Origin: Hydrolagus colliei
Taxonomy: Eukaryota
Direction of reading: 5' to 3'
DNA length: 64,000 bases
Assembly (NCBI GenBank): GCA_035084275.1
Contig: CM068747.1
Span: 2,914,001 to 2,978,000, forward strand
In this document: one piece after another, positions 1 through 59,074 of the stretch
Layout of the letters: every line of letters starts with the position of its first letter
Position numbering within the stretch: the stretch's first letter is position 1
Position numbers and translations under genes: made by a program
The notes under the pieces: generated by a model
Seen by the model: only the letters and a program-made list of their open reading frames with translations
The model's database searches: none
What the model was told of the DNA's origin: nothing

Positions 1-884
1 GATAATGTAACCTCGTGAAAACATCAATGTTTTCCTTCTTTATGAACAGTTATCCTGTTTATTGATGTTGACACTGTGGGTTGGAGACGCAGGGGAAAGT
101 TATTATTATATTTGCACCAATGTTGAGGATCCCAAGTGCTTTGGGACGTCCACCTGATGTGAAAGGCGCTCTATAAATGCAATTTTATTGTTGTTTGTTG
201 TTGTTGAATGGAGGACGGTTGGGTGGCTATTGAGGGAGGATGAGATCAGACGGGCAGAAGGGCCTCCATTTATCCAAACCAATCTTGTGATTGTGTAATA
301 TTACTTGAATTGGTTCTCAAGCAGAGATTGTAGTTTGTCATAATGGTGGGGGTCAAGATGTGCCCACCCTATGTGTGAAGGTACCAATTTTGACACTTTG
401 AAACAATTTCTGTAATCAACAAATTAACCTACCTTTTCGCGGGCGTGAACTTATTTATTTCACGCAAGACGCTGGCTGCTTTGATGAAGTTCAACTTCAA
501 AGTTAGTTTACAAGAATTCGACATTTGTACAATGTGGAAAGGTACAGTAATTCAGGATGACAATAAGTAGAAGATCACAAGATTGATTGGGATAAAGATT
601 GGAATTCAACCCGTCCAATCTCATCTGGGTTTTCTTTTTTAATCCAATTTAAGCAATACTCCAGATGAGATCTGAACAACACTGTATGGGTTGGACATGA
701 CTTCAAGAGGATTTAAATTCATTGTATCTCAATGTCCTGTCTACCTGTTTATTTTTACATTGTTTGGACAAGGCAAGGGCCAAGTCAACTAAGATCCCTT
801 GTTTATGTTCAATTTCTTCTTTTCCAAGTTCTACTGCATCCATTGAATGAATTTTACTCCCTCCAGTAACCTGTAGGTGCGGCT

Positions 885-8402: not shown

Positions 8403-9411
8403 GATATAGTGCCTTTCACGTAGGATGGCGTCTCGGAGCTTTTGAACTAAATGATAGTTAAAAACAGGAACTAAAATTGTCACAAAGTTGGATGTGATCA
8501 CCAAGGAATCTCTCTGAAAAGAGTTATGGAGTATTGGCGGATGGACAATTTGTTTCACGCTGTATTCTTCTTATGCAAAACCACTGGAGATTGTGAAATC
8601 AGTTTTGACATGTTTGAAAATGCATTGAAAATAAAGAAAAACATTATTTCTTACTGGAGATTGAATGCCCTTGTGAATCAGATCCTGAAAATGTGTTAGA
8701 TTTTGAGCAGCTTATTCATTAGGTTGAATAAATTGAGCAAGTTGGAGCTATAGAAATTGTGAGGCGAGAGGCAAGGGATTGATCGTGGTTTCGGAGATTT
8801 CGGAATGCCTATGGGAGACTTACATGCCAAAAAATAATTCAAAAGCCATCAAACTGCATCATTTACAATTCTTACAATTTAATTCAATAACAAATTTCTT
8901 ATACTGTACTTTCCAAATGAAAGTATTTGTGTTTGAACGGATCAGAAATGGATTATAGTTTAAAATATAGTTTGACCTAATTTGGGTACGTTTCTGTTAA
9001 TTAGCTAGTGTCAAGCTGAATTGATTATTTCAATTTTTATGCTTGTTAGTTGATATGACTTGTTGAATTCTAAGCCCAATTAAATTGAGCTGAATTGTAG
9101 AATTTATATCTAAGCATGACATAAGTTACAGAGTAGTCGGTTTAACTCTGACCGCACAGATCTTCCTGATGTTACAAAGGTAAAAGAAATACAGCTAAGT
9201 TATACTTCATTCAATTTGAGTTGGTCAGTCCGTGTGTTCAGTTCACGTTGGTGAGAGTGAGTACATCTTTCGTTCCTCTTTGCTCTGTGACTGGAGCCAC
9301 TCGACCTCTGCAGTTGAAGGTTCAGGAATTCCAGTAACATTGGAAGAAAACGGAAGAAAAGAACAGAACAGAAGTCGTTGGGAACGGAAAGTGAGTCAAA
9401 ACAATTTGAGT

Positions 9412-9525
9412 CCAAATCGTTGACTCACTTTCCCTTCTCCACGAGTCGCTGCCTGACCTGCTGAGTGTTCCCAGCAACTTCTACTTTGGTTTCAGATTTC
9501 CAGCATCTGCAGTATTTTGCGTTTT
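9412..9525 (+). mobile_element. Penelope terminal-repeat derivative, truncated within the hammerhead
   Basis: Homologous to 14785-14890 (cgttgactcacttt...gcctgacctgctgagtgttcccagc...ttccagcatctgcagtattttg). Confidence 0.75.
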
Positions 9526-9729
9526 GGGAAGAAAAGAACAGACAGCTAATGATACAAGAACACAGTTGCAACACACCCGCAAGAGTTTCAACATCTGCTA
9601 TTCTCAGCGTTCCCGAAACATGAGAAACAAGAAAGCAAGACAAGTTTGCCCGCTGTCTATGAACTCTGTTGTTGTCATCACAGTGGCATGGTATACGTGA
9701 ACATAGCAGTCCAATATTGTCATATTGAG

Positions 9730-10196
9730 TGTAGCTCCTGTAGCTCAGTGGTTAGAGCACTCGCCTTACAAGCGTGAGACCTGTGTTCGAATCCAGGCAG
9801 GTCAGGGCGAAACCTTGGGCAAGTTTCCTTACTCCACACGCCTAATAATAATCCCTCAAAAAAAACCACAATAATAAAAAAAATTGTTCATTTTAATCCA
9901 CGACTGTTTGTGGGACACTGCTGTGCACAATTGGCTGCCGCGTTTCGCCCACAAATATATACAGTCAATTCACTTTACAGTATTGAAGGCATGATGAGGC
10001 GCTGTATCAAATGCAAGGATAAAATTGGTCATTTCAATCCACGACTGTTTGTGGGACGCTGCTGTGCACAATTGGCTGCCGCATTTCACCCACAAACATA
10101 CAGTCAATTCACTTTACAGTATATTCTGTGAAGCGCTTTGAGATGTCGATAAGATGTGAAAAGCGCTATATCAAATGCAAGGATTATTATTATTAT
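9730..10196 (+). mobile_element. tRNA-derived Deu-domain SINE with duplicated Deu/tail half
   Basis: A box tagctcagtgg, B box gttcgaatc, Deu core tgctgtgcacaattggctgccgcg present twice, L2-like tail ending in (tta)n. Confidence 0.88.
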
Positions 10197-13351: not shown

Positions 13352-14784
13352 CAGGAATACACACAACCGAGGGATTTGATGGCCCCTTTTGTTTAAACAT
13401 GCGAGATTTTGAAGTGCTTGCTCTCAACGCTCATCGATGGCCGGTTTGCGCATGAACAACGCCAAAACAACAGTAACACATTGCATTTATCTGACTGGCT
13501 TCAGGATTCAGAGCATCCAAAGAGGATGATCTCCCAGTGATTCACACTCACAGAAGCTGAAGGCGCTTAAACTCAGATAATCAGTATCCAAAACATGCAG
13601 TTCAGATATCATTTAGGAGTTTTTGCAGCATCAATCCTAGTATAATAGCAACTCTTCTGTGCGCTTTTTTGAAAATACTTTCTGTAAAGTTCCCAATGCC
13701 ATCAGAGACATAACACGTTAAAATCCGACATTTGACTCACTGTCCTTGAGAGAGCTACCAAACTGCTTCACAGAGATTTACTCTCGCATTGTTTCAACTG
13801 TAATCAGTTAAAAAAGCTGGGAGGTATGGTATTAGCAGTCTCATACCTGGATATTTCTTTGGTCCACACTGTATTCTATGTTGTCTGATGCTACTGTATG
13901 TCATTTAGTACCCACCTGATGATACAGGACAAAAGGCGAAAATATGTGCATCTGAACCCTAATTAGCTCTGGTGATGTTTGCTGCTCTTACTAATGAGTT
14001 ATGTTCTGTCATAGCTCTGATAAGTACTGCTTTAAACACTCGCAAAGCTACAGTTTCATCTTGTTGTAAAGACCTGCTGACTGCAAAAGTTACACAATCC
14101 TGTAATTGAATAAGGACGTGTACTGCAATATGCTGCTACATATTTGTGATAATTGGTTAATGAACGGTAATTAAGCTCGTATAAAAGGTGCCTGCATTAC
14201 ATCAACAGCAGGATTCAATAAAAAGCACTTTAGCTCTATGAATTAAATATTAAAGTAACTGTCCTTTTCTCCTATTACTATATGCATAATGGAAACACAG
14301 GCTCTTGCATTTCACCTATTATGCTCATTTATGCTGATGGGGAAACATACTGTCATTCAAAACAATGTTTCCATAACGCTGCTGTTCTGCAGTCAATAAT
14401 TTCCTTCTTTGCAATGTGGGCCACCCTGTTTCACTTCGCTGGCTTCCTTATTCACATATAAACTGATGCCTACCTACTCCTACCCCAACAACAGGTTTGC
14501 CATTCTCTGTGCCCCCATTCCATCGTTCAATTGTTCCCAATTATTAGCCAGGCCTTTGTTGCTACTCTCTCAATCTCAGTTTCCTTATCAAAATGTTTTA
14601 AAGATGATTTAAGTTTCATTAGCGAACAGATTTGCAGAGGGTTCACAAGACCTCAAGCAAATGTGATCTCTAACTTTGGAGACAGCGAGCTTTCAAGATA
14701 AAGTGGACAGGACACGCTGCTTAACCTTTTCCGTTCCTGTCTCTTTAGTGGGTCCATTATTTAAAAATAATTAATAATAACAAT

Positions 14785-15385
14785 AAAAACACAAGATACA
14801 GCAGATGCTGGAAATCTGAAACAGAAACAGCTGGGAACATTCAGCAGGTCAGGCAGCATCTATGGATAAAGGAAAAGTGAGTCAACGTTTCAGGTCCACA
14901 ACCCTTCATCAGAACTGGGGAATGTTGGCAGGGAGAGGCAGGATTAACAGAGAAGGAGAGGCAGGGCAAGGAAGACAAAGGAGAAAATAGGGTATGGAGA
15001 TAATGGGATAAAGAGGTGTTAATGTGAAACAAAAGGGGGAATTGCAACAAAACTGGGTGAAATTGCCAAAGAACAGGCAGATCAGACGGTCGCAATAGAG
15101 GAGGGAGGTGAGCTGTTATGGCCTGAAATGATTGAAATCAATATTAAAGACCGAGGGCTGTAAGATCCCTAGCAGATGGATAAAGTGTTGTTTCCTCGAG
15201 CTTACGCTACAGTTCATTGGAACAGCGGAGGAGACCGTGGATGGAGAGGTCAGACTGCGAGTGGGAAGGAGAGTTGAAATGGCATGAAACCAGTAAGTCA
15301 GGGTTGTATTTACGGGCAGAGTAGAGGTGTTTGGCAAATCAGTCACCCAATCTGCATTTTGTTTCCCCAATGTAGCGGAGACCAT
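14785..15385 (-). mobile_element. Penelope-like retroelement 3' end: degenerate GIY-YIG endonuclease plus terminal repeat with hammerhead motif
   Basis: Minus-strand translation GLRYIGETKCRLGD*FAKH...VSCHFNSPSHSQSDLS, a frameshift, then QHFIHLLGILQPSVFNIDF, followed by the repeated ~150-nt terminal segment. Confidence 0.85.
14880..14916 (-). ncRNA. Minimal type I hammerhead ribozyme motif (Penelope-associated)
   Basis: 5'-AGUU CUGAUGA A GGGUU-GUG-GACCU GAAA C GUU^GACU-3': both core boxes, helix II, helix I (AGUU/GACU) and a palindromic ACGU helix III. Confidence 0.7.
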
Positions 15386-17561
15386 AAACTTTTATAAGAT
15401 CAGGTGATACCCCCGCTATCATATCAAAATATAAAAATTGGATACCTCTTGCATGTGGAAGGCTCCAAGATCAAAATAATGTCGGTAACGGAATTACAAC
15501 AGAAAATTGGGTATAAGTTTTTCCCTCCACTTTCAAAATAATTTCTATTGCATCAAATTTTCATGCAAACCAATGAAGTTATTGAAAAACGGTTTTCTGT
15601 TCCCTGTTAAATAGGCATTTATTCACACAAAACATGTAACTAATTTCATAGAGATTTGATAACTTTTAAATGTGCTGTTTTTGTCCTCTCCCGTGCGGAG
15701 TTGCCCAAATTGCAAATTATTTTTTTTCCAGCTTTTCATCAACGTGGCACTGAAATGACACTAGCATTTTCGATGGGTGCTGTCAGGAAGAGGGCACCAC
15801 TAAAAAACAAAATTGACCTTGAATGCTGAATTTGACTGCATTGCAAAAAGCTAAGTTGAAACCTTTTGAAACCGCACTGCCAGTTTGAGAGATTGCCCCC
15901 CTCAAAGGCTTTAGAAGCCAGTGTTTCTCAGATTGAGTAAACTGTAGTTCTAAACTTCTCACAAAATATTTTTATTGGCTGAACTTACGATGGTCATATA
16001 ACTAAAGTGCTCGCTTTTATTTAACATCCAAAACACTGCACGGCTACCGGGGGATCATGGCTGGAAACCGGTTGCCTCTTGAGAACTCGTTAAGAATGAT
16101 CCACAAGTGCCCTGTCCATTAAAAATGGTGTGCGCTCAAAGCGATAATTGGCAGCTTTTATGATACAGCATATTCGCTACCAACAACAAATCACATTTAC
16201 ACTTTTACATTGGGAGGACGTCCGAAAGTGCTAAATCAATGTGGTCGCCTAAATGATTTGTCCTTTGCTGAATTTTCCTTTCAAGCTATCGGATCTTAAG
16301 GAATCCCTTGCTTAGTTAATTGTCTTCCCCTCACCCACCCTTGGTTCATTGTTCAGTCCCTTTCCGGTCATTCCATTGGATTTGAACAGGGTACTCATTA
16401 ATGTATTGGTATCTAGTCAACTGCTATGTCTTCTACTAACAGTTTGAAGGTTATTTCAACCTTACCCAATTAGTTTGTACTGCAGCAGACAATGGGTTTC
16501 ACTTCACCCACAAATATAGTCAATTCACTTTATAGTATATTCTGTGAAGTGCTTTGAGATGTCTCGAGACATGATAAGGCATTGTATCAAATGCAAAGAT
16601 TATTATTACATTCTCTCTGTCTCTCGCCGGTGTTTGGTTTGGAAGCTGCCAAACATCACGAAGGGATGGCCAGCACACAACACCGGATTCTAGTCACAAG
16701 GTTAGGACTTCAGAACTTTATGCTATTTTCCAAGATTAATTCTGCTCTGAACATTGTGTTTACGTGGCTTTGGCGTGACTGCTCTGTACGTTGTATTTAC
16801 ATGACTACTCTAGGAATCTCTGAGCAATTCCTTTTTTTACGCAGGAGATGGCACTATAGTTAATACAGTTATCAATTTATTATTCAGAACAGACACTCCA
16901 GCGGCAATCTCTGAACACTTTTCATTTCACCCTGTGTAAGACATAAGGGGGGCTTTGGGCTATAGTCTCTCTCTCAACAGTGGAACAGATGTAGCAAACA
17001 CACACACACACACGTATACAGTCAGTCTGGATGGCAAATATCTACCTCATCTGCATGACTTACAACTGCTGTCTTTGTGGGGGATGGGAAACAGAATTCT
17101 TCTGATGCAGTCTGGTAAGATTTAAACAGAAGGCATTTGACAAAACTTTGCTGGGAAGGAAGGAATGAAGAAAAGAAGGAAGGAAGACTGCTCTTGAATA
17201 ACTTATTTTTGTTGGGAGCAACTTGCCTCTGAGATACTCAAGGATTTTGGAGACTGTGAATAAGGAAATCTGCTGAGGTTGTTGGCTGGCACTGTCAGTA
17301 TAAGTTGCTAATAACTAGAAGGTGTGATAACGTTTGACAAAAAAGACATCGAGAATCACGTGGTGAGCGTTTGAAGCTCAGAGACATTCAAGTCTTGATC
17401 CAACACACAAACGGATCTCCAAACCTGGTCAACATGTCCCCAAGATAGGCTCCCCAAAGTATTCCCCAAAGTGGACATCCAGTCGAGAAGACATCTACAC
17501 GGGGACATCTACATCTATTTGGGAATTTTGCTGCCTGGACGTGGAAGTTCCTGACCTGAGG

Positions 17562-17627
17562 ATGAGCCAAACTTCCCTCCTGAGAGCGTTGGCTGTGATG
17601 TGCTGCTGTACTGCTGGGTCTGCACAG
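17562..17627 (+). CDS. PTH2R: PTH2R exon 1 (signal peptide [22 protein letters not shown])
   Basis: ATG in AGGATGA context, hydrophobic core ending in ...SAQ (human PTH2R exon 1 ends ...RAQ), strong phase-0 donor CAG|gtaagg matching phase-0 exon 2. Confidence 0.82.
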
Positions 17628-20600
17628 GTAAGGCGAGCTCAACTTGTTTATCATCAAAGGTAAACAGGGAGCCAGACATATCATCAAATAACAGCAGCCA
17701 GCCACTTCACTGAGATTTATCTACTCTACATTTACTACTACAGCTGTTGCATGGTTTAAAGCAATACCCAAGCCATTGGAATGCTCCCTTTAGTTAATTC
17801 ATGGCAAGGTTGTAATGGGTATTTAGTCTGCTGGGTATGAGATTGAGTATTCACCTGTAGGTGATGGTTAACACATGATATTTAAGTTTAGATTAGTTCA
17901 TCGGCTGCTTTGCTACAAGGGTATTTAAAGGAGAAGTTTTATTGTTCTGTATTTCAGATATGGAGTGTGTTGCCTGCAGTAGTGTGTATGTATGTATGTG
18001 TGTGATGTACTTAAAGCTTTCACGTTTGCAGTGTTCAGCCTTGCACATTTAGACTCTGTGAACACATTTATTGGAATGTTAATCTTTTAATTTGATTCAA
18101 TGAAGGTGTGTGTGTGTGCCTTGGATTGACTCAGTAATGAGGAGGATTGCACCACGATTTTCATAGTCTGTTGTTCATTAGTTGGTGGAAACATAAACTG
18201 GGGGGAAAAAAAATTACATAAGGAATCGGTGATGGGATGGATTTTCGATCCTTTAATTAATTGATTCTTCAATTAATGAATTAATTAATATGCCAGACAT
18301 ATGATTAGAGATGGAAGCCTTTGACTCTAGTTAATTAATAGTGGGTGTGGATTGTCAAACATTCTTTAAATTGTAGTTTGTAATTGTCCCTTTCAAACTT
18401 TCCCTCTAAAATCACTGGTCTTGTCACTTTAGATATTGCCTATAATTATCTGTAGTATATATCAGGGGATATACATAGATATATATATAGATATATTATT
18501 AAACCAGTATGGTGAATGCAAAGAAAAAAAATCTGCATCAAATGTTTGTACAAGTTAACAATATGAACAAAAATCTGAACTGAATTAAAGTTTATTTTTG
18601 GGGTGGAGGAGAGGAAAATATTCCTCCAGTTGTTAATCACAGTGAGACACTCTTAACCCCTTGAAACCCATGTTTAAATCCTCACAAACACAATCGATTC
18701 ATTGCTGCTTTGTCCCACGAAAGGCTGGGATGAGGAAACCGAGCCACTCCACAGTGTGTAGTTGTACTGGGAGAACGCCTCGTTTAACTGTTAATTCCAG
18801 GTCAGAGATGATGTCAGTAAATTTGATGACCTGATGACAAGTTGAATGTATTCACACAAATGCTGGAATTCATTGTACATTGGGGGGGATCTCTTGTAAA
18901 ATGTGACACTCTCTCAGCCTTTCTCATTGTAATTCACGAACAATCCATGCTTTTTAATTCCACGTTTACAAATTTCCCCCCCTATGATATTGTCCACATA
19001 CTTGGACACATACACACACAAGTATATTATTGATGCAATGTTTTTTTTCACACTTAATCCTGTTCATTAGACTGTTTTATATTATAATGAATCAATGACA
19101 TGTGGTCTGATACATAATTAGAAGTCGCTGGGAACACTCAGTAGGTCAGGCAGCATCTATGGAGAGAGGAAAAGTGAGTCAACCTTTGGGATCCACCACC
19201 CTTCGTCAGAACATGTGCTCTGATCACAGCTTTACTATACTGTACTTTAAACGCTTGAGCAAAAGATTTCCTCCCTCCCTGGGTCTGTGCTAAAACACAC
19301 AATCTCCACAAATACATTTGGCTTCTGTTCTGCAGAAATGTTTTGTAAGATATGCAAACTCATGCTTAGGGATGGAAACCTTTCATTTCTAGTTGAAGGC
19401 GTCCGTCATTCGGGACAGCATCTTGGAGAGCTTTATCAGATCATCGAGGCATCTCAAACTGTATCGCAGGTTATTCTGGTCACGTAATGTGAGTGTAATA
19501 TAATATAAATTATCCTTGCATTTGATGTAGCGCTTATCATGTCTTCTAGACGTCTCAAAGAGCTGCACAGAATATACTGTAAAGTGAATTGACTGGATAT
19601 TTTTGGGCAAAACACAGCAGCCAATTGGACACAGAAGAGTCCCACAAACAGTCATGGAATGAGTGATCAAATTATTTATTTTTAGTTTTTAAATTTATTT
19701 TGTTGAGCGATTATTATGAACTTGCCCATGATTACACCCTGCAGGCAATATTGAACCCAGGTATCTTGCTTGCGAGGCGCATGCTCTACCCATTCAGCTA
19801 CAGGACTCTTTAATTGCTTGGAGACGCTTCCCCCCAGCATGAATAATAATAATATAATATGAAGGATGTTACGCAAATGTAAGTTGATGTTGTATTTTGT
19901 GAGGATTCCCTAAAGATGCTAAATGTCCAAGTCTCACCTGGATACCAAACCCCATTAGAATCAACAGTGTGTTATACTGGTTATTAACGCACTTTTTTTT
20001 CTCTTCTAGTTTTAATTTACACTTCTTTCCCATTTTAAACAATAATAATGATATATTTTTATATGTGAGGGAAGGAGGGGGAGGTGGGGGTAGAGCAATG
20101 TAGCTGTAGAGGCTCATGTGGATCATAAACACCGGCATGGCCAAGTTGGGCTTGTTTGGTTCCCAGATTCTATGTCATTTCACGATGGCGCAGAGCAGCT
20201 CACTGCACTCCATCTGTGTCTCCCACTCACCGCGGGCAGATTGCTATCAGCAGGCAGCAAACACAGACACGCACGTCTCGAACCCCCTTCTGTTCCTAGG
20301 GGAGGGTTTGTGGAAAAATAGAGAAACGACAAGGTGGCGGAGAGGATGCAAATAGAAAGCAATAGGAAAGTTTCCCAATTATCGTCACCGGATACGTCTA
20401 AAAGTCTAAAAGTGAATCCTGAACAACGTTAATATCACAATAGGCAAGACAAATGCAAATAATTTTAGAAGGTGTTGGTATCGGGATTATCACTCGGTCG
20501 GCATTGGCAGTTTCACACAAAGTTTTGCATCCCGTTTAATTATGGAATACAGCAGTCTTTATTGTGTGCAAATGAATATGTTCAAAATGCTTATTGGCAA

Positions 20601-23600
20601 ACAGCATGGCATAAAACACAGGAGCCAACATCAGGAACATATGCTGTTCCCTGATGCTTTCTATCAATAGAGAAAATTAGATTTTGTGAAGATGTACTGG
20701 TAGCATTATGACAAAAACATCTTTGTGCTAAAATGTCTCAATTCACGGTTTATTACTGTGATGCTCAGGGAATTCCAAGTGAAACGGTTAGAGCACTTGC
20801 CTTACAAGCGTGAGACCAGTGTTTCGAATCCAGGCTGGTCAGGGCGAAACCTTGGGCAAGTTTCCTTACTCCACACGCCTGATAATAAATAATCCCTCCA
20901 AAAAAACACAATGATAAAATTGGTCATTTCAATCCTCGACTGTTTGTGAGGACACTGCTGTGTCCAATTGGCTGCCGCGTTTCACCCACAAATATACAGT
21001 CAATTCACTTTACAGTATATTCTGTGAAGCTCTTTGTGACGTCTAGAAGACTTGAAAAGCACTATATCAAAAATGCAAGGATTATAATTCATTTGAGCAT
21101 ATTGCACTGTGTGCACAGAATTTACAGGAACATACATACCATCCATGGCCAGGCCATTAGCTCAGTTGGTTTGAGCCTTTCAATCGGAGTCCTGTAGCCT
21201 TAGAGAGGCATTCACCTCTCAAGTGAGAAGACTTGGGTTCAGTTCCCGGTCAGGGCAAAACATTCGGCAAGTTTTCTTACTCCGCACACTTCTGTTCACC
21301 TAGCAGTTAGTCAATTGATGGATCCTTTTTTCTGGGAGTAATAATCCCTTCCAAAAAAAATACTAATGTGATCGCTCAATCCATGGAGATTGCTGTGCGC
21401 AATTGGCTGCCATGTTTCTCCCACCAAATGTACAGTCAATTCACTTTACAGTATATTCTGTGAAGCGCTTTGAGGAGTCTTGAGGGCAAGATATGGCTCG
21501 GCCCCGGGATCTGTTATTCTGAAGAGCTCTGAGACGCTGCCTGGCGTGGAGGGCGCTATATAAATCAGAGTTGTTGTTGTTATATTAAATGCAAGAATTA
21601 TTATTATTATCAGCTGGACTTTGAACGAATGAATCTGCGGGGGTTTTAATACTCAGGGTTCATCCATTGCTGCTCAGAAAAGAGCTGAATGTTACATTGG
21701 AGAGTTTTATAATTGTTGTAGTTTAAGAATGGGATGGTTATTAATTTAACAGCAATCAGGGAGGTATTGTGAATGACATTAAGTGTACATGGCTAGGCAG
21801 CACGGTATATAAAGAAAAAATAGAGGATTCTGACCCTCTCTGAGCTTGAGCTGCTCATGACAGTGTGTTAATCTTTTTTTTTATCATTACTGCCTCCACA
21901 AACACATCCAATGCCTCTGCTGAGATCCAACTTTGGAACATCTTTAACCTCCCGTAAAGCTTTGGTTCCTAAGAATTCCATATCACAGCTAGATTCACAT
22001 ATGCACTACTTTTCTACTGCTGAGTTAATGAATGCGTCAAGAGTGAGAGGGGGAAGCAACTTGACTGATTAAAAATGTGTCCATTATTCCTCGTGTGTTC
22101 GTAATTGGGAGCAATCATTTTATGAACACTAATAAAACTCCATTTCTCATTGAGTGTTTGCAGGAATGTCAGGTGTTTGTATAATTTATGGTGTTCCATT
22201 CTATTTGGAAGAATTGTTAAATGGGCTTTACGTTAAAGCTATTGCTCAGTTAAAGCTATTCTTGCAATTATTCATTCGTAGAAAGACGTTCATTCCCCAG
22301 GGATTGTTTTTGCTGATTTTTCTCCCAAATTCAACAAACGGCCAATTTTCAAGCTTCATGTTTCAACAGTTTGAGGATGATGAGTGGCCAGAGTTGGGTG
22401 TACGTGAGCAGTTTCTCTCCTACAACCGCAGGCGATTGTCATCCATTACAAGCAGCTTGGTGCCAAGATGCTGAGTGTGAATGTTGTAGAACTGTGAGAT
22501 CAAATGCACTCAAGGGCCTTCTCCATCCAAACATCTCTGAGAGATCATTGCAATTACAAGGCCCCCCCCACTCCCCATAAAACCATTAAAAAAAAAAGGT
22601 TTCAACACCCGCTGAGCCCCGCAGGCTACACTGAGTGGAAAATAATTCTAACTTCCAACGACTTTTGTTTTCCCCCGTAAACTCCGCTTCCGCAGTGCAT
22701 CTGTGGACTATGTCCTCGCTGGCCACACTGAACGCACATCTAGACAGTACACCATAGCTTTGCCCTGTTGACAAATCTTGCTGGCTTTCTCACTAGCCTC
22801 TGCACGGTAAAAAGAACAGTTCAATGTAGAATCCAAATCATTATTTCAGATGCGTACCGTATTTGAATTTTGACATCTGTGATGTAGAGTAACTAAGAGT
22901 GAAACGCACGCACTGTAATCTCCCTGCCTTCTCTCCCCCACCCCCCACTCCCCTACCACAGTGGAATATTGTATGTTCTACTTCGGGTGACAGGCCTCAG
23001 GGAAAGGATGGTGGAAATGGTTTCCTGAGTGAGTTTGGTGTTTCCTGAGTGAGTTTGCTGGGTGATAGATACATGGCAAGCAGTGGCCATGCATTGGTCT
23101 TTGTAATAAAAAAAATCTGATTGCATTTGAGATGAAACATTATTGCTAACAGCTACCAGGAATCAAGTTTAAGGCTGTAAATCCTGGAGGATTCAGAGGT
23201 TCATGTTCACACACTACTCTTGCAGTTTACAAGATTAATTGAATCACTTCAGTCAGATTCCAGCCTGGTAAATCAAACCTATTTTTTTGTACCACATTTA
23301 TGAAATGCAAATTGTATAAATGATTGCTGTTCAAATGTTGCGGTCGAGACGCATTTCAATACCGTCCTCTTCGACCATGCTTTCGGTCACCCTCTTATCC
23401 CTCCTCACCCCGCCCTCCACCCCTCCTGATCCAACCACTGGCTGGGGTGCGGATCCCTGACTGCCTTGGGACATGCTCCAGACGTGAGAGGCGCTGGACA
23501 AATGTCATTTGTTGTTCTTGTTGTTGTGATTTTTTTTCAGGTTGACTCCGACAAGGTTGTTACCAAAGAAGAGCAGATGTACCTTCTTATTGGGGCGAAA

Positions 23601-26600
23601 ACAGATTGTGATCTACACGTATCTACCCAGCCCGAGGAAGGTACAACTTCTTACAGCCTTTGTTTCTTCATATGATTGGCCTGACAGCTCTGCATTTATA
23701 CAGATAATAATTGACTGAAGAAGCTTTCGGTGATGCGATCGGGCCCCTTTCACAACTAAAGGAGTGTGTTGAGAGTGTGTTGACAGAATGAGAATACATT
23801 TCTCTTACACTAAGGATGTATCCTTCGGAACATTTGTCAGCCCAACTGGAACATACCTTTGGTCGTCACATTGATTTGTGCCGGATCTTTACTCTGATAA
23901 TCTGGAAAACCACATCATAGCAAACAGACAACTGAGTGTTTCTGGTTCATCTCTTTCCTCCACTTGCAATCAACACCCACTGCAATGTTTTATTTGCCAT
24001 ATTTTAGTGTTGCTTCAGTTCGGCAATAGCTTCAACTAACATTGATCAAACATTGTTTGAAATCCAATTCATTAACACTGAACTACTCAGGACTTATTTT
24101 GTGGACTGGAGCAAACTTAACCTATATAATGATAGGTAATAATCATAATCCTTGTATTTGATATAGCGCTTTTTACATCCTATCGACATCTCAAAGCGCT
24201 TCACAGAATATACTGTAAAGTGAATTGACTGTATATTTGTGGGTGAAATGAGGCAGCCAATTGTGCACAGCAGCGTCCCACAAACAGTCGTGGATTGAAA
24301 TGACCAATTTTATCATTGTGTTTTTTTGGAGGGATTATTTATTATCAAGCTTTCGCCCTGATCTGCCTGGATTCGAACACAGGTCTCACGCTTGTAAGGC
24401 AAGTGCTCTAACCACTGAGCTACAGGAGCTCCGCAGCAAGTACTCTTAACAGTAAGGTCACAACAGCTACAAAATGCAACAGCCTATCTACGCTCATCAC
24501 AATTCTGTGAGGTTTCCTCAAAACAGACGGACAATGGCATCGAGAGCTGCTAAGAAGTGCAACAATGACTGAAACTGCTCACCAGCTACACTGAATGACA
24601 CTGATTATAGTCGATCATCCTCTACAAATTACATCGAAATGATATTCCAAACGTGGAAGGAGGAAAGGACTGTGTTCTGTAAAGGATATGTGATTGATAT
24701 AATTTAATCAGGCTACCACTATGATTCGGAATATTATGCAAAATAATTTGCAGTGATCTGTGCTGCAATTTGTATAAAGAGCATTCTACAGGATTGCTGC
24801 AGCTCAGTGGTTAGAGCGCTCACCTCATAAGCGAGAGACCTGGGTTCAAATCGTAGCAGGGCGAAACCTTTGGCAGGTTTTCTTGCTCCACATGCCTACT
24901 AATAATCTCTCGAAGAAAACCCCACAATAATAATTTCAATCCACGCCTGTTTGTGGGACACCGCTGAGCGCAGTTGGCTGCCGCGTTTTGCCCACAAAAA
25001 TATACAATCGATTCACTTTGCAGTATATTCTGTGAAGCGCTTTGTGACGTCTCAGAGAAAAGGGCGCTGCATCAAAATGTAAGGATTATATCAAATTGCA
25101 AGAATTTTTACATTCTATATTTTCTCAATCTGACTTTTTTTTTAAAAAAAGATGGATTTTGCCCTGCGGAGTGGGATGGATTAATATGCTGGACAAAAGG
25201 ATCCCCGGGAGAGGTCACTGCGGTTCTGTGTCCAAGTTACATTTATGACTTTAATCATGAAGGTGAGTAAGCCATGAAATCTGAAATATTGGCATTTTTA
25301 TTTATTCTTTGTGGCCGGGTTTATCGTCCGAGTTTGATACCTCAGTGTGTTCTTCAATCTTTTCCAGGACTTGCCTACCGGAAGTGTGACGACAATGGGA
25401 ACTGGGAATACGTGGAAAGCCTAAATAGGACGTGGGCTAATTACAGCGAATGCATCACATTCCTGCAATTTGACACTACCCACACACAAGTAAAGTTAAC
25501 AAAACAACAATGCCACAGTACCTTCATCCTGAGACTTTAAGTCAGTGTTAATTGCAGTTACGACAATAGTAACATGCATTGATATATCGGGATAGATTCT
25601 CGTAACGCTAATTAGTAAAGGAAACAAAGAGCACACAGCTCTTGACTTCATTTAATGTTCATTCTAATCATTTAAGTATTATATTCCCAATGTATTTGTG
25701 TTTGATTTACCAAAAACTAAGAGCCAGCAATTCCGCTCAGTTGGAAAGTAATTTGTTTTTTCAATTCTCTTTAACATGCAATGTTCTCTCATTCAATAGG
25801 AATTCTTTGAACGATTGTACATAATGTATACTGTGGGGTACTCTGTGTCACTTGGCTCATTGACTGTAGCGATTATGATCATAGGGTACTTCAAGTGAGT
25901 AGAAAAGTTTTTATTTTATGCACGTTGAATCTTGAAAACCAAGTTAACCATGACATCCATCATAGCGTTAAATCCTCAACGTTGGAAAAAGATTCACTGG
26001 AGAAACCTTTAGGACATAAGGGTTTTCTCAATGAGGTTCTCTCAATGAGGTTCTCTCAATGAGGTTCTCTCAATGAGGTTCTCTCAATTAAGCCGCTGAA
26101 ACCCTCATCCATGCCTCATCCATCACATCCTGTTCTCGACTACGCCAATTCCCTTCTTGTCGGCCTTCCCAATTCTTCCCTCGATTCGTTGCAGGTAATC
26201 CAGAACTCTGTGGGCCGTGTCCTCTATTGCTTCCCCCTTTCCCACCACCCTCCCCGTCCCCGACCCTAGCTCGGGTCTGAAATAATGACTTCCGGTGCCT
26301 TGGGACGTCCTCCTGACGTAAAAGCCGCTATACACATGTCATTTTGTTGGTGTTGGAAATGTAATTTTGTTGTTCGAAATGGAAAATCTACATTGGTCTT
26401 TAGGTTTGGGATTCACTACATTGCTGTGCTAGAGGCCTTTCACTTTCTAGCCAACAAAAGTTATCCTCGCGTGTGAGTTGGTGATACTAGCATATGCTGA
26501 TATTGGCACACGCTGGGATGAAATAATTAACCCCACAATACATATTCGTTGGTTCACATCAAGTGCTTTGAGAGGTTTCAATGACATGATAAGGTGCCGT

Positions 26601-29600
26601 GCAAAACACACGGATTATTTGTTGTTACTTTAAGTGCTGTGACTTGCATTCTAAGTAGCCTAAAACATATGGCTCGCAGCTTGCTGAGACGCCGCAGTGG
26701 TACATACAATCGTATGCAAGCCTTACTACACGTACAATTGTGGCTGGGGACTGGAGCGGCGGAGGGTGGGAGCTGAAGGGAGAGGGAGTGAGGAGGTGAA
26801 AGAAGAAGGTGTAAGAGAGTCCAAACGCATGGTGAAAGAGGCACATTTAGAGAGGTTGTTTGCAAGAGAGGAAGGAGGCTTCTGGGCACAGATCATTGGT
26901 AAACAACAATGGTTGTTAAACTATTCCAAAAATGCTTAAGAGAGCTGACACACGTTCCTACTTTCCATCCACAGAAGGCTCCATTGCACCCGGAACTACA
27001 TCCACATGCATCTGTTTGTCTCCTTCATGCTCAGAGCCATCAGTATTTTTGTCAAAGACAAAGTGATGCATTTTAACTTGGAGCAGGAAAGTGACTCCTT
27101 TACAGTGGAGGATCTGAAAGTGATGGTGACTGATAAGTCTCATTATGTAAGTACACGTGTTTGGATTCTGTCACTTTTGTACTTGATGCACGAAAAGTGT
27201 CACGACATATCAAAGCTGGATATGCTTGAATAAAGCTGATTCATATATAAATATCTGTATCCATAAGCAACGAGCATAAAGCAGAGACAATTTTCGAGTG
27301 CGTCTCAGTTAAAGTGTAGCAGTCGGCACAATTAATAAGCGTGATATTTTTATCTAATTAACATTTTGATCTATGACACGAGAAACTGGACATCAAATCG
27401 GTTTTCAGATTGCAGGGTAGTCCTACCTGCACAAAAACAATTTTCATCGAGAACGCATTTAGATACTGCACTTCAGTTGAACTCTTGCAAAACGGATGGA
27501 AGGAGGAAGATAGAAAACGTGATGCAAAGGTAATTTGCAGTTTTTAGTCAGATAGAAAAATATTGACATGTCGGCTAGCCGTGTATAGTTTGCATTGGAA
27601 GCCTTTTGGGAAACAAAAGAAAATTCCAGTTCTGATAGAAATGGTGGCAATAATCTTTCCATCTGATGTAGCGCTTGGCAAGTTAGGGAGTCTACCTCAA
27701 AGAGTTTCACAGAATTTACCGTGATTTTAAGTGACTGTATTTTGTACACAAACAGCCAAGAAGTAGATGACCAATTTTATCAGGGGGATTGTTAGACAGC
27801 AGTGAACTGATTTCAACCAGCACAACAGATTGGACAGTTACAGTTGTCCTCAGCATCTCTGAGGTATAAGCAGAATACAACAAAAACTGCTGGAGTTTCT
27901 GCTACTGATGGTTGATGTTCGACGGTGACAGGATACGCTTGGATGCGTTTCCTTCAGTCATCGACTGCCGTGCCGACACACTCACTGTCAATGCTCTTAC
28001 ATGAGTTATGGGATAGGTACCTTGAGGTACCTGGTGTCTATTATACTGTACCTCAGCTGCAGGAAAAAATGAGTGAAATGTCTTCTTTTTAGGGAGGGGA
28101 CACAACGTTAAAAAAAAAATCGGAAAGAAAATTGTTACAGAAATAAATTTACATTTATGTCCTGCCATATGTTCATCACCCAATTCATACCTCTATTAGT
28201 GAGTAACCACTACCCCCTGTACCCCCCCCGGGCTTTTACATTCCTTCCTGTACCTTCTCCCACTTCCATCTTCAAAACCTGTCCAAAGACCTACCTCTTT
28301 GAACATATTTTCGGCCACCTTTCCCTATCCACCTGCGATCCCCTCTTCCCAACTACCACTAGATACACGAATCCATAGAAACACATGGATTATTCATCTA
28401 TCTTACGTCGGGGATAATTTAAACTAAGACTGTTTAGAGCAGCTCACAAACTGAGCATTCAAGTCACATAACACACTGTTATTTGTAGCTAATCATTAGG
28501 AAAACCTGAGGTCTTATTCAAACTATTACCTTAATGATCAAATACCTTCAGAAGATATCCAAGTGGAGTCTTTCTAAAGCTATTAAATGTTTTAACGGTA
28601 CACACAATTATGTCTCTGGGTTTCCAATCATCATTCATTGAAGTGGTCTTTGTAAATTACTAAGCAAAGCATTAATATATTAATATATATTACGAGACAG
28701 CTCGTAATATATTCCTAAAATAGTCTGGTGGTAACTCATCACTGGTACAGACATGTTCCTAGTGATATATTATGTATACAGTATTGGAAAAAGATTGTTT
28801 TTGAGTTTGTTAGGTGAACATGGCAGCCAATTTGCGCTCAGAAATGCCTCACAAACATTCATGAAGTGAATGACCATTTTTTTGAATCTGAGAATCATTG
28901 GCCAAGACACCAGAAGAAACCTTCTTCTCTTTTTCAATAGTTAGTTCCATGGGATCATTAAGTGTTTATCTAAACAAACAACATCTCCAACAATAAAGCG
29001 CTTCTCAAGAACTACAGTTGCGTCTCAGTCTAGACTAGTGGTTCAAAGAGCTGATTTGTGAATACCGTATACAAATTTATGACTCAAATGAAACCTTGCT
29101 GAACACCTGAAACAGGAGCAGAGTCGTGGACCTGAAACATTGACTCACTTTCATTTCTCTCCAGGTGCTGGCTGACCTGCTGAGTATTCTTAACGATTTC
29201 CGTTTTGGTTTCAGACTTCCAGCAACTGTAGTACTGTATTTTGGGTTTTGTGCTATCACCTAAGCAGGCTGACATCTCTTTGATGTTAAATTGACTGTTA
29301 CTTAACTGCTAACTTCGAGCTTGGGAATGAAGCAATTTAAAATTTTACGTTAGTTCGTTGGTGATAGAATTACAGTATTGACACTTCTCCCAAGAACACA
29401 ATGATGTTGAAGCTTCCATCTACTTTCATTAACCTTTGATGGATTTTTGTTTGAAAATGGACCGGTTTTCTGGTCTTGTCTAATTATTTACCAAGTCGTT
29501 TGTCACAACAGCAATTGAGGCATAAACTCACGGAGGTAAAAGCAATTTTAATGCAGTTATGTTTATTGTGGAATAGGTGGGATGTAAGATTGCGGTCATG

Positions 29601-32600: not shown

Positions 32601-35600
32601 AAACTGCTTTCAGTGATTTGCTTAGAAGTGATATCAATTGGATTCAAGCAAGGACCTTATTTAAATAATGGGAGAAGCACCCATAGATTGTCGGCTACTT
32701 CATTAAAAACAGTCAGGAACTATCAGAAAGTGTGGATCAAAAGAAATTGGGCCTCAACAGACTACGTGTATTAAATATGCTTTTCTTTCCCTCTTCAAAG
32801 ATGCTGGGATTTAAACGTGGGCAATTTTAACTGGATTTATCAAACACCAATTCTTTTGGCTATTGTGGTAAGTCTTCCCTGAATTCATTGAGAAAGGGAG
32901 AATCGTGCGAGGGTAGCAATGCTTTAAATAAATGAAACACGGAGGTTGCGTGAAAGCGCAAAATTGTGTTGCTGAAAAGCGATTTCTGACTCGCTGCAAA
33001 ACTTGTCTCAGCTTTTATCTAATTTTTCAGGTCAGTTTTCTCTCATTTTCAGGTCAATTTCATGTTGTTTGTAAACATCGTTCGAGTTCTGGCTACTAAG
33101 CTACGTGAGACAAATGCTGGGCGATACGATACAAGGAAACAGTACAGGTAACAGAACTAAATATCCTTAACGTATAAGCAATGAAGGCTAGAATCCTAGC
33201 ATGTCCACCAAAAACGCGATGCCCATGTTGTTCCTTTCTGAACAATATATTGGTATTGTAGCAAAATATCTTCACAGTAATTACATTGCATTTGACAATC
33301 TCATAACACTTTTCACATCAGAATATTAAGACATGCCGTTTAACTGCATTTTTGGTATGCAATATTTAAAAAAGAGCCTTTTAATAGTTTAACGTGAAAC
33401 AGAAGATAAAAATTTAAGAATACCTAGATTTTGGGATGAAGTTTCTCTATACATATCAGCACCCCATTACTCACCCTGATAGAAATATAGACTTGTATCA
33501 TATTCCCATCCAGTGCCTTGGGATGTCCTCCCGGTGCGAAATGCGCTCTACAAATGTCATTTTGTTGTTGCTGTTGTTGTTATGTGCCACGGTCCATTTT
33601 GTTCCAAACAAATCAACGTTGGCTGATAAGTATCATCAAAAAACATTCCAATGTAGAGAAATGTCTGTGCTGTTCTTTTCTCTTGAAGGAAACTGGCAAA
33701 ATCTACCCTGGTTCTTGTGTTTGTGTTTGGAGTACACTACATTGTGTTCGTAGGCATACCCCATACCTTCACTGGGCTGGCATGGGAAATCCGCATGCAC
33801 TTTGAACTTTTCTTTAATTCTTTTCAGGTAAGGCTACATTATTTTTTCGTAACTTTCAAATAAAACAGCAGGATTCTTCATTAGCTTCATTGGTCAAAGT
33901 GCTGCTGCCCCATGTTGAGACACAAAGACCCAGGAAGGTTGGAAATTTATCTCAGAGATCGCTGGGAACACTCAGTAGGTCAGGCGGCATCTATGGAGAA
34001 AGGAAAGTGAGTCAACGTTTTGGGTCCACGACCCTTCGTCAGAACCCTGGAAAACTTGTTGAGTTTTTTTTTCGGTCGTGGAACTGAAACGTTGACTCGC
34101 TTTCCTTTCTCCATTGACGCTGGCTGACCTACTGAGTGTTCCCAGTGACTTCTGTTTCGTTTCAGATTTCCAGCATCTGCAGTATTTTGTGTTTTCAAAT
34201 GCAATGAAAATGTTATTCAGCCAGATTCACAAATGTTGAGATAATTTGCGGCTCAATTCCTGGTACATTTTGCTCAGACTTGGGATCTATGTTACCTTTG
34301 TGTTACACTGTGATTGATGCTGTGGATTAATTTTTTTGCTGAGCTGACCAGATTCTAATACCGTAGTCTGAATCCTTATGGACATTTCTGCTCTTTGCAG
34401 GGATTTTTTGTTGCAGTCATATACTGTTTCTGCAATGGAGAGGTAAGCTCACCTAATTCTATTCAAAAAGTACGGATTGAAGTGCTCATATTGTACCCAA
34501 CAAGAGATTTTGTTTTATCCATTAACATAAAGCAAAATAGTCTGAGTGCAGCCCTGTGCTTGAAATGATTGTGCTATTGATATTGTGCCCATTGGATTTA
34601 ATGCCTGGAGATCTCATGACCTGACTTGGTTGAGTTGGGCTCCATCTCCTCTTGTTACCACTTATAGTTTTTAACCTCACTCGTTTCTGTTCTTCATATT
34701 GCAACACGTATTTCAATTCAGACCACGTTTCACATTGGTCTGGGGATATGGGGGAATCAATTCTGCAGTTGTAAAAATATAAGTTCAGCATTGATCCTGT
34801 CTCTATTGGGAATAATTCTGCATTTGCCAGCATAAGTACCTGAGCAAACTGGCTCACACTCGCACAACAAGCACCATGTGGGATTGGTTGGACACAGAGC
34901 TGTTGCCTCCGCATTCTCTCTTGAAAGTTCCTCAGGAGTGAATAGAATAATCAGCAGGGAATGTCAGGTCTTCCCTGACTTGATTCATTCCTTTTCCTTT
35001 CACCTCCTGTTTCATTTCTCTCTCCTTGAACTATAACTGGAGAACTATATCCCAGTCTCCAAAGGCTCACATAGGGGACATCAAAGACACCAATTTGCCA
35101 AGTGGGTCCCCTGGCGGCAGAAGTATATCAAATACCAAACTCAACACACACATTTTACGGTGACATACACATTTGACTCCTGTTCTAGTTGCTCTATCTC
35201 CCCCTTCCCCCTCTACACCATCACATACAGTACTTTATTTGATCAGCACTTTAGGACGTGCTCCCGACGTGAAAGGCGCTATACAAGTGCAATTTTGTTA
35301 TTGTTGTGCAGTGCACACAATGTTGTAGTGGAGAGAAACATGGCTTAGAAATAAACTCTGGAATAGTTGACGACTGAGAAGAATAAAACCTTCAAGGGCG
35401 AGGGTGGAGTATGAATCCAAAGAGCAAAATAAGTGAATGTTGAATCAAAATCAGATTGGGGAGGAGGTCACGCATCATTAAGGCAAGTCTGAGATTAGTG
35501 ACTGCCAGAATTACGTAGAGTATAATAAACACCAGTGTCCAACCGTGAAAATAAAGCATTAAAGACAAACGGAAGCAAATGGCCTTAGGAAAACCTGCCA

Positions 35601-36218: not shown

Positions 36219-36244
36219 GATACGTCTTAATGACAATAACGCAA

Positions 36245-36706
36245 ATCTGGCTCCCCGTCCTCCAGAGGATCGAGTTCAAGATCCTCGTCCTCACCTACAA
36301 GGCCTTACACGGCCTTGCCCCGCCCTATTTAACCGATCTACTCTCCCCCTACACGCCCACCCGGACCCTCCGTTCAACAGGACTTGGCCTGCTCCAAGCC
36401 CCCCGCCCGAACCGCCCCACCATCGGAGGCCGGGCCTTCAGTTTCTCCGCTCCCACCCTATGGAATTCCATCCCCCAATCCCTCCGTCTCGTTTCTTCCC
36501 TTTCCTCTTTCAAGGCCGGTTTGAAGACTTTCCTCTTCGATCGTGCCTTTTGTTCCACCCCGAACTTTTCGACCTCCCCTTCATGTTTCACCCCTTCCCA
36601 AACACTCCCCTCCCAGCTCGGGTCACACGCCTCCTGTGCAGCGCCTTGGGACGTCCTCCCAATGTGAAAGGCGCTTTATAAGTGTAATTTGTTGTGGTTG
36701 TTGTTT
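36245..36706 (+). mobile_element. L2 LINE 3' fragment in the PTH2R 3' UTR
   Basis: Uninterrupted WLPVLQRIEFKILVLTYKALHG...GGRAFSFSAPTLWNSIP...FKAGLKTFLFDRAF plus tail. Confidence 0.92.
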
Positions 36707-36938: not shown

Positions 36939-37194
36939 TATGTATGAAACCAAAGGATATTCATTACCCTGGAGAAATAAATCGATTTGGTGCGGGTATT
37001 GATTGCTTATGGAGGATTCCCCGTCAGCGATATATGCTGTCGGCTTAAAAATAATCAAATAACAAGCAAGTGCGTTTCACAAGTGTGTGTTGAGATGGGA
37101 AAAGATCTCAGAGTCTGAAGAGCGCTTCAGAATGAGAAGCTACTTCATTACGAACTTGAAAGGCTTTACGGAGGCTATAACGCTACCAGCACCC

Positions 37195-38475: not shown

Positions 38476-38782
38476 AATAATAATAATCCTTGCATTTGAT
38501 GTAGCACCTTTCATGTCTTCTAGACATCTCAAAGCTCCTCACTGAATATAATGTAAAGTGAATTGACTGTATATTTGTGGCCGAAACGCGGCAGCCAATT
38601 ACGCACAGCAGTGTCTAACATCTAACAAACAGTCATGGATTGAGTGACCAAATAATTTTTTTCTTGAGGAATTATCATCAGGCGTGTGGAGTAAGGAAAC
38701 TTGCCCAAGGTTTCACCCTGCCGGGAATCAAACCCAGGTCTCTCGCTTGCAAGGCAAGTGCTCTAATTACTGAGCTACAGGC
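38476..38782 (-). mobile_element. tRNA-Deu SINE
   Basis: Full head and tail. Confidence 0.82.
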
Positions 38783-55902: not shown

Positions 55903-57528
55903 CAGCAAGACTGCTCTCACTGCAACACACACTACAGGGAGTGCAGTCGGAACTCTAAGAAGTCAACTGAACTCTAAGAAGAGAAGTTTCACGTATGTGA
56001 TCGCTGAAGTATTTTTGGGGGGAAAAGAATGAAACAACACAATACAGATTTATACAACGCCTTTCACATCCTGGCCTTGAGACACACCTCACACCTTGAA
56101 TGAGGTGGGGGAGCAAGAGAATTGGAAGGACCTCAAGATCTTCATTGCTCAAGAATTGCTGCCTCAAAGCCAGATCATACACAAGGCTGAAGGCCTATCA
56201 CACTTTCCTGAAGTGAGGTGCTCAGAACTGGATGCCATACTCCAGCTGTGGCCCAACCAATGATTTATAACAGACTCAGTATAATCGCTACCTTTAAAGT
56301 AAGAGGTTATTTTATTGTTATTGCTGTGCATTTGTCCACCTTGTCCATGGTTAAGCGCATTAGCTGGAAAGATTGTCTCTTAGGTCAACCTGTTGATCAC
56401 AGTTCAGGCATGTCATCTTTCTGAAAGCCAACCCTTGGGATCAGAGTAGCTATTAATCAACTACTGAGCAATTTAAATTTCATTCAGGGGTGGATCTGAA
56501 ATAATTATTTCAGTGATTAAGTATTTGAAAGTTCTATGTCTATTACTTAATACAATATCATAACAAACGGTAGTGATACTAACTTTTGGACATTCGCAAG
56601 TTTTTCAGGGATAACATTTATCACTGCTGCCACTAGTTAATTGCACCCCCAACCCCCACGAGGTTAATTCGCTGCTATTTTAGACTGAAATCTCTTCAGG
56701 ACACGCAGTAGCGCAGTGTCAAGCTTTCACTTTCAGATCCAGTAAGTGTCCCAATTATATGCATGTAGAATGCATCTTGACTCGTGACAATTAAACCTTG
56801 AATATATTTTCCAGGTCATATTTGTATCCGTTCATTAAAAGCCCACACCTCGATTATAATAGGATTGTGGGTCGTTTGCACATTACATCATGCACTCATA
56901 TCAAACCTTTGCAGATTGGTGTAAGTGTTGGCAACAAGAAGATAAGGAGATACATTTATTTTAACTCCCAGATTGATCAGAAAAGCTAAGTTAAGGATAG
57001 AGAAAAGAGTTATGGAGAAATCAAAGACGGAATTGGTTGTTGTTATAGATAGTTAACAAAGCTGGTTAACAAAGAATCATTTGGAAAATATGATTTCTTA
57101 TCCAAAAATAACACAGCCCAGCAAATAAAAATTTCAGTGAGTCATTTAAACCTATCTTTGATGAAATATAGAAATCCAAAATAAATTCAGATTTAAATTC
57201 ACCCCAATAATTTACTTAATGGATGTTTAAAATCAGCCAGTGGTAATCCATTAACTGAGTGTTTAAATATTATGTGAAATCTGTTCAGGCAGACACGTTT
57301 TGTACAGTTGTTAAATTGTCTTGTTAGGTGCAAAGGTAGAGAATGTTTCATAAACTCAATTCGAAGCTTTTCATCAGTCACATTAACTGCACTGCTGTGA
57401 ATCTCAAAGCATCCTTAAAATCGTTTGGTACACTAGCTTCAATTCTTTCTCTCTCTCCCTTGCATTTAATATAGTACCTTATCATGTCCTCAAGACACCT
57501 GAAAATGCTTCATAGAATATACTGTAAA

Positions 57529-57672
57529 CTGAAACAAAAACAGAAGTTGCTGGGGAAACTCAGCAGGTCAGGAAGCATCCAGAGAGAAAGGAAAGCGGGT
57601 CAACGTTTCGGGTCCTCGCCCCTTCGTCAGAGCCGTTTCAGATTACCAGCATCTGTAGTATTTTGTGTTTTG
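57529..57672. mobile_element. Penelope terminal-repeat derivative with internal inversion, nested in a SINE, 10-bp TSD
   Basis: Flanked by atactgtaaa at 57519-57528 and 57673-57682. Confidence 0.8.
57597..57634 (-). ncRNA. Minimal hammerhead motif, second copy with intact core
   Basis: GGCU CUGACGA A GGGGC-GAG-GACCC GAAA C GUU^GACC; one mismatch each in helix I and helix II. Confidence 0.55.
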
Positions 57673-59074
57673 ATACTGTAAAGTGAATTGGCTATATGTT
57701 TTGTGAGCGAAACGTTGCAACCAATTGTGCACAACTCAATATTTGTGGGTTGAGTGACCAAATTATTATTATTATTTTGTTTGGAGGGATTACTATCTTC
57801 GGAAAGTGATTCACCAATCGACTGGCAAAAAGGTTCTTACTCAGTGCTAGGTAATCAGAGGTGTGTGCGCCTGTGCGTGCGTGCGAGCGTGCGTGCATGT
57901 GTGTGCAGTAAGGAAACCTGCCTAAGGTTTTGCCCTGTCTTGCCTGGAATTTGTTAAGTCTACTGCTTGTTCCAATACATTTAGCGATCTTGATTGCATG
58001 TGAATAAGCTTCTCCAAACAATTCCAAATAGGCTGACAGAATGCCTCATTAAAAAGGAAAAATATATGCACAGCAGCTGAATGTTAAATGATATGATACC
58101 CGCATGAATCAGAATTTCTAATTGACCAGGTTTAACTGTACAGTATTCTAGAAAATAATTGCATTTTTTTCCATTGGGTTATGAATGGCTTTATATTTTG
58201 ATTGTAGGCGATAAGATAATGCATGAGTGCTGACATAAATAATCTAATAACTCGTCTCATTAATCCAAAGAGCTCCATAAATCGAAATTCTGAGGAACAA
58301 TGCGCAATTCTGTCAAAACAGTCACAATGTTCATTGCTCATTTTTAGCGTTTTGCTTCTTAAAGAGTTTTCAGAATAAATTGGGAGCTTTTCAGTTTTGC
58401 CGTTAACTCCCCTCCCTCAACAGGAGAGCGAGCAATCATAGTCACAAGATCACAGGATTAGTTCAGATCAAGAAAGTCCCTTTTGGCCATCTGATGTTAG
58501 CCTTTGAGAACCCCTACCTTATTTTTCCCATCACAGCATCAAGTGTCATGGCCTCAACCACTGGCAACCTGTTCTGGTAGTTCATCTAATTCTGGGCAAA
58601 GTAAAACCTTCCTGTTGTCTGTTCGGAAATTCTGCTTTGAACTCTAAACCTGTGTCCTCTAAACCTGTCTTGCTGCGTCTGAAAGTATTGCCCTGGGTTT
58701 ATTTTTGCAATCCCATTAAAATGTTTCTATAGTCTCCCTTGATGTGCCCCGTGATTATCCTAAGTTTATGTTTTATACAATGAGGTGCGCCAGAAATAAC
58801 TTTATATCTCATATTCCATTCTCAACTGCAAATTTAAATGATAGCAATTAAATGTCTTCAATCTTATGCCAAACTGTGAGAATATGGTGTTTTTCATAAA
58901 TGATTTCAATACTGCATTTCAAAAGGTCACTCTTAAGAACCCCCACAGTTAACTCAAACCTACAGAGGTGAGAGTTTAAAAAAAAGCGATAAGAGTTTGT
59001 GTTCCTGAAAGTCAATATACACGAAAACCTTAGGACATTAATCCTGGAGTGGTTCCTGTGTTCATGGTTTAAGC

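Follow-up and report, generated by a model that had tools for sequence, protein, structure and literature searches.

Short copies of a probable Neptune-type Penelope-like element in Hydrolagus colliei share a narrow 5' boundary near the start of a minimal hammerhead ribozyme

The short, hammerhead-bearing repeats that abound in the genome of Hydrolagus colliei are probably copies of a Neptune-type Penelope-like element. Its own reverse transcriptase (RT) has likely made them from uncut RNA, running from the tail back to an RNA 5' end that is likely situated where the ribozyme begins. We give this reading a probability of about 0.7. A hammerhead carried in a pseudo-LTR is already known as an arrangement, and the noteworthy trait is the fixed 5' boundary of the short copies, hereafter called stubs. 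As a ribozyme or as an element the family is ordinary; its value is that of a large natural data set on the copying of Penelope-like elements.

One locus of the family lies on the minus strand of the 64,000-nt stretch analysed here (the window). Motif positions are numbered from the predicted cut after GUU, which places the ribozyme start at -33. The features of the locus are as follows.

14782..15384, minus strand: 3' end of a probable Neptune-type Penelope-like element, 5'-truncated and decayed, about 600 nt, 84% to the family majority over 662 columns
15116..15384, minus strand: GIY-YIG endonuclease coding end, broken by stops and a frameshift (from translation)
14917..15115, minus strand: pyrimidine-rich 3' UTR / upstream pseudo-LTR part
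14880..14916, minus strand: minimal type I hammerhead motif, all core bases intact
14916-14913 paired with 14883-14880, minus strand: hammerhead helix I
14912-14906, minus strand: hammerhead core (CUGA from 14912), with the extra A at 14905
14904-14892, minus strand: hammerhead helix II, two of its pairs being G-U wobbles
14891-14888, minus strand: GAAA box, followed by the palindrome AACGUU
between 14884 and 14883, minus strand: predicted hammerhead cut
14786..14815, minus strand: optional tail of about 30 nt, matching the bimodal 3' ends of family copies

A decayed GIY-YIG end followed by a hammerhead had been predicted on this strand, and both were recovered, at 15374-15116 and 14916-14880. 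YIGET...HFNS..HS is readable from 15374 on, with a TAA stop at 15118-15116, and the motif at 14916-14880 reads AGTT-CTGATGA-A-GGGTT(GTG)GACCT-GAAA-CGTT^GACT, in agreement with the proposed minimal type I hammerhead with a palindromic helix III. No clear target duplication was seen in the flanks of the remnant. In the window, an Rfam scan gave no match to the hammerhead model at E<=1, and Tandem Repeats Finder found no array of the terminal unit. Single-strand folding z-scores (0.97, 0.43, and -0.65) gave no support, as expected for a ribozyme that acts as a dimer.

The assignment to Penelope-like elements was borne out by longer copies, in which an RT, a Cys linker, and a GIY-YIG domain are found. 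Stepwise upstream extension through these copies yielded an endonuclease with cysteines and histidines, then the linker, then RT motifs, for an element of about 3.2 kb. The RT and the C-terminal GIY-YIG occur in this order as fragments in decayed copies, with no intact ORF seen, and a C-x4-C-x2-C linker separates them in copies L105, L111, L112, and L120. In Pfam the decayed fragments score weakly and below cut-off (RVT_1, E 0.022; GIY-YIG, E 0.015 in a sister copy), and longer homologues clear one or other of the two cut-offs. Among named proteins, the nearest are RT-domain proteins from a bamboo shark and two rays (59%). In the near full-length copies L179 and L180, the terminal segment and tail continue directly into the N-terminal coding region; the terminal segment is thus both the unit end and the RNA front, a dual role of pseudo-LTR sequence described in the available text of PMC2377424. 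The signs of a pseudo-LTR are all present, namely a partial tandem, an inverted 5' copy, and a 30-40 bp tail, and the longer copies show a ladder of 5' ends with a single 3' end. The locus and its short relatives are therefore likely insertions of a Neptune-type element, Neptune being assigned by sequence features and not by a tree: the CX2-5CxxC linker marks Neptune and Nematis elements (PMC8557442, in part), and only Neptune and Poseidon are reported from the vertebrates sampled in the part of bioRxiv 10.64898/2026.07.22.740005 available to us. Copies L120 and L123, on contigs 3 and 65, are 99.9% identical including their flanks, which corresponds to a segmental duplication or an uncollapsed haplotype.

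Six further copies of the terminal segment had been noted in the window, and all were recovered at their places by blastn/nhmmer (E 1e-18 to 1e-29; 0 matches in a reversed-sequence control). They belong to the following insertions.

9352..9542, plus strand: stub insertion with a 16-bp direct repeat (9352 and 9527), its arm at 9412-9525 beginning within the ribozyme
19098..19224, minus strand: tail-less stub with a mutated GAAA, its start 32 nt upstream of the cut
29120..29249, plus strand: tailed stub starting in helix II, no CUGAnGA box
33940..34195, both strands: head-to-head pair, tail-less arm 34045-33953 (minus, start -32) and tailed arm 34074-34195 (plus, start -20)
57519..57682, both strands: head-to-head insertion, tail-less arm from 57631 (minus, start -30) and inverted tail 57635-57671 (plus)

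The copies listed at 33955 and 34072 are both real, but they form one head-to-head insertion and not two, for which folding predicts one long hairpin. The tail-only fragment at 57635-57671 is additional to the six. Only the stub at 57631 keeps both catalytic boxes, with weakened helices: three of the six (9412, 29120, and 34074) begin within the ribozyme and hence lack the CUGAnGA box, and two (19212 and 34045) have a mutated GAAA. Three insertions are head-to-head, the inverted arm upstream in 9352..9542 being internally deleted, and three have clear target duplications, including one of 14 bp with one mismatch at 19098..19224 and one at 57519 and 57673. The window copy had been taken for the parent of the stubs; it is instead a sibling, since its private changes are absent from them and it has no RT. 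With six insertion events, the window stands at about four times the genome mean (P 0.004, for a window that was selected). The host sequence at 57519..57682 is an interspersed repeat of about 20 copies. The same target duplication, inside this abundant repeat, is common to two independent stub insertions (window 57519-57682 and copy L238:1485-1615), and the flanks of copies L246, L255, and L320 resemble the same repeat, which is possibly an insertion hot spot for stubs.

Genome-wide (1.0 Gb, 532 contigs), the family was followed in two samples. The blind sample consisted of 120 stretches of 10 kb at round coordinates (1.2 Mb); the core-intact sample comprised the first 70 of 1,444 matches to an exact 32-nt core pattern (control 0), all in the first 36 Mb of contig 1, with two pairs belonging to the same insertion. 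The 37 terminal segments of the blind sample trace to 28 insertion events, of which 19 are single, 9 head-to-head, and 0 in direct tandem. Extrapolation gives about 23,000 insertion events per genome (95% range 15,500-34,000, old copies being missed), which upholds the claim of a very abundant family, and the 10,109 exact matches to a 20-nt anchor set a floor for the number of segments. Stubs of 100-145 nt dominate: 35 of the 37 blind-sample segments start no more than 110 nt upstream of the cut. The 3' ends are bimodal, about 30 nt apart, at +65..77 and +96..108 from the cut. Half of the core-intact copies (35/70) were flagged with an inverted partner, and exact flanking direct repeats of 9-15 nt were found for 26/70 vs 1/344 shuffled pairs. 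These target duplications surround entire inverted pairs.

In 44 of the 70 core-intact copies the 5' ends lie at -29..-35, with a mode at -32 (lengths beyond about -50 being underestimated by ungapped extension), and 29 of these 70 lack the full 5' strand of helix I. The rate of 5' ends per base in the 37 blind-sample segments is 0.147 at -29..-35 (9 ends for 14 segments at risk), vs 0.023 at 0..-28, 0.007 at +1..+35, and 0.014 at -36..-100. The peak is about 7 nt wide rather than a single base, as microhomology blurs the boundary, and ordinary truncation also occurs, given that 23/37 blind-sample segments stop downstream of -29. No peak is found at the cut itself, where about 4-6 of 100 matches listed begin, next to about 9, 6, 3-6, 9, and 16 at -1 to -5 (a count by eye that leaves out deletions and frame-shifted rows; there were 558 such matches among the 10,109 anchor matches). 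Copies spanning the cut were made from uncut RNA, and the 5' pile-up likely records the 5' end of that uncut template. The CCAGTTC context at the boundary fits the initiator consensus. The bases at -31 look like a splice acceptor as well, and the intron of Drosophila Penelope ends at the start of helix I according to the available text of PMC4209133; the boundary need not, therefore, be a transcription start, and neither a shared first exon nor a clear cap signature was established there.

The ribozyme itself fits published minimal hammerheads. Core-intact family members, the window copy included, have the CUGAnGA and GAAA boxes, an NUH triplet, an unpaired base between 9 and 10.1, a palindromic 15.2-16.2, and a short helix I. 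The extra A noted after CUGAnGA is real, and is expected because this unpaired base recurs in published minimal hammerheads (PMC4209133, in part). The predicted GUU triplet also held: 1,444 matches carry GTTGAC vs 36 with another base than the U of GUU at position 17 (4 of them GTCAAC), so that GUU is the master triplet of the family, and its origin by CpG decay of GUC was ruled out by the same counts. GUU is probably a weaker cleavage triplet than GUC. The changes between subfamilies are compatible with the helices: the first pair of helix I is U-G in 35 and C-G in 6 of the 41 core-intact copies that reach it, and the base of helix II is A-U in 39, G-C in 18, G-U in 6, and A-C in 2 of 65 (by eye). 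A covariation count on nine sequences only did no better than shuffles, the pair changes between subfamilies amounting to one or two evolutionary events. Copies L224, L283, and L069 represent a third subfamily, apparently older, with A-U at the base of helix II, U-A in helix I, and GUU. The majority core is predicted to favour a GACG-CGUU pairing that would occupy the core in the monomer. A strict intactness test (both boxes, palindrome, and helices) was passed by none of the 29 blind-sample segments that span the cut; by their sequence, most genomic hammerhead motifs are dead. A search for unrelated hammerhead families with GUC/GUA gave 156 matches vs 75 in the control, and the matches listed are mostly family variants or chance. 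Three near-identical divergent GUC cores lie 28-48 kb apart on genome contig 1 (155.35-155.43 Mb), likely through local duplication.

These observations suggest a route for the formation of stubs. The GIY-YIG domain would cut target DNA, and either of two internal sites would serve to start reverse transcription, in many cases from both ends of the broken DNA. The RT would then run off the 5' end of its template, whose simplest source would be transcription starting inside the pseudo-LTR. Long copies could arise when a read-through transcript is primed on its downstream repeat. In the available text of PMC11167929 on Poseidon from a lizard, the green anole, two internal priming sites define the tail in vitro, both strands are cut and extended, and uncut RNA is the main substrate. 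Cutting by the ribozyme would need a second copy, through the palindromic helix III, or help from a protein, and would be dispensable for making short copies. A more specific version, to which we give slightly less than an even chance, treats stubs as a fossil map of Neptune RNA: transcription from the first base of the ribozyme, priming of uncut RNA at its 5' repeat from one or both ends of the broken DNA, run-off, and a hammerhead that would take no part in template processing in vivo. If true, it would explain the solo and inverted pseudo-LTRs that swamp these genomes. The stubs bear on whether the hammerhead acts on the template, a question left open in the available parts of PMC8557442 and PMC11167929.

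Other accounts of the stubs have to be weighed against copying of uncut RNA from a fixed start. They might stem from the 3' repeat of full-length RNA through ordinary 5' truncation, with the pile-up caused by microhomology joining at that point or by an RT that stalls or switches template on meeting the folded ribozyme. Strong 5' truncation is normal for Penelope-like elements (PMC8557442, in part), and 5' ends are already more frequent within the ribozyme than downstream of it (0.023 vs 0.007 per base). The peak, however, lies at the upstream end of the structure, and an enzyme that travels 3' to 5' would have unwound the fold before arriving there; beyond the peak the rate falls about tenfold, leaving this account unlikely. 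That stubs far outnumber long copies would also suit a SINE-like non-autonomous family, in which solo repeats are transcribed from about -33 into the flank and re-copied in trans by the Neptune protein; in a rotifer, repeats are enough for trans mobilisation (PMC3846280, in part). Yet the stub variants correspond to the subfamilies found among long copies, and a non-systematic comparison revealed no stub-specific subfamily or carried flank, so we judge it improbable.

The original prediction had favoured a retrozyme-like family, spreading via ribozyme-cut, circularised RNAs of about 150 nt. In size the unit comes close to the lower range of animal retrozymes, and retrozymes derived from Penelope-like repeats appear in bioRxiv 10.64898/2026.07.22.740005 (in part). 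Like the animal non-LTR retrozymes of PMC7229834 (in part), stubs are small, non-coding, hammerhead-bearing, and related to pseudo-LTRs. Those retrozymes, however, are described in the available text of PMC7229834 and of the same preprint as units in tandem that bear canonical ribozymes, with circular RNAs. Here, neither the 28 events nor the window contains direct tandems (rare arrays elsewhere in the genome may exist), unit ends are neither at the cut nor permuted around it, and target duplications of 9-15 bp, head-to-head pairs, and an optional tail are found instead. The missing helix I strand in 29/70 core-intact copies and the lack of strictly intact ribozymes (0/29) argue against it as well, and only the minimal form occurs, without canonical helix I/II loops, in place of a canonical type I ribozyme with its 6-bp helix I, its 4-bp helix II, and contacts between loops. 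Because tandem units and canonical ribozymes are both defining features and neither was seen in the events sampled or in the window, the stubs are not classed as retrozymes, an origin that we consider very improbable.

Cervera and De la Pena (2014; PMC4209133, in part) described minimal hammerheads in pseudo-LTRs of metazoan Penelope-like elements, including Neptune and Poseidon elements of fishes, with an unpaired base between 9 and 10.1, G10.1-C11.1, and a palindromic 15.2-16.2 as recurring traits; these ribozymes cleave at a low level as dimers and not at all as monomers (for dimer cleavage, see also Lunse et al. 2016, as cited in the available text of PMC6765202). The present family shares their core boxes, unpaired base, G10.1-C11.1, palindrome, and 4-bp helix I, as well as thousands of mostly single motifs and opposite-strand pairs. 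It differs in its helix II of 5 bp, vs 7-8 in Schistosoma and 6 in Drosophila, and in having GUU as its triplet throughout; the available text names no cartilaginous fishes. With the Neptune clade as described in PMC8557442 and PMC3846280 (both in part) it has in common the RT, the CX2-5CxxC linker, the C-terminal GIY-YIG, partial tandems, an inverted 5' copy, an optional 30-40 bp tail, and target duplications around inverted units, whereas the dominance of 100-145 nt stubs with a narrow common 5' boundary sets it apart from these accounts. As in green anole Poseidon, two priming sites would define the tail and the repeat runs into the ORF start, but Poseidon belongs to another clade and has its start codon in the ribozyme, while the ORF here likely starts downstream of the tail (PMC11167929, in part). 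A search of the openly available literature returned no prior description of the family in cartilaginous fishes, nor of its 5' boundary, and the available part of PMC12602865 holds nothing on repeats or ribozymes. The survey in bioRxiv 10.64898/2026.07.22.740005 (in part) includes one chondrichthyan genome, and the family may be catalogued already.

Several minor observations concern the rest of the window and the surroundings of the stub boundaries. Both preferred boundaries, the 5' start near -31 and the tail start near +73, are preceded by a pyrimidine tract and CAG, a splice-acceptor-like combination located on the minus strand at 14914-14913 and 14816-14815. Seven tRNA-like heads (9737-9801, 24363-24425, 24797-24859, 38713-38784, 42678-42742, 51881-51948, and 21189-21257) sit in a repeat of about 300 nt with about 20 copies in the window, a tRNA-derived SINE. 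Open frames at 851-1303, 30929-31473, 36131-36678, and 37119-37728 on the plus strand, and at 55214-55954 on the minus strand, resemble decayed LINE RT ends, which we take to be L2/CR1-like.
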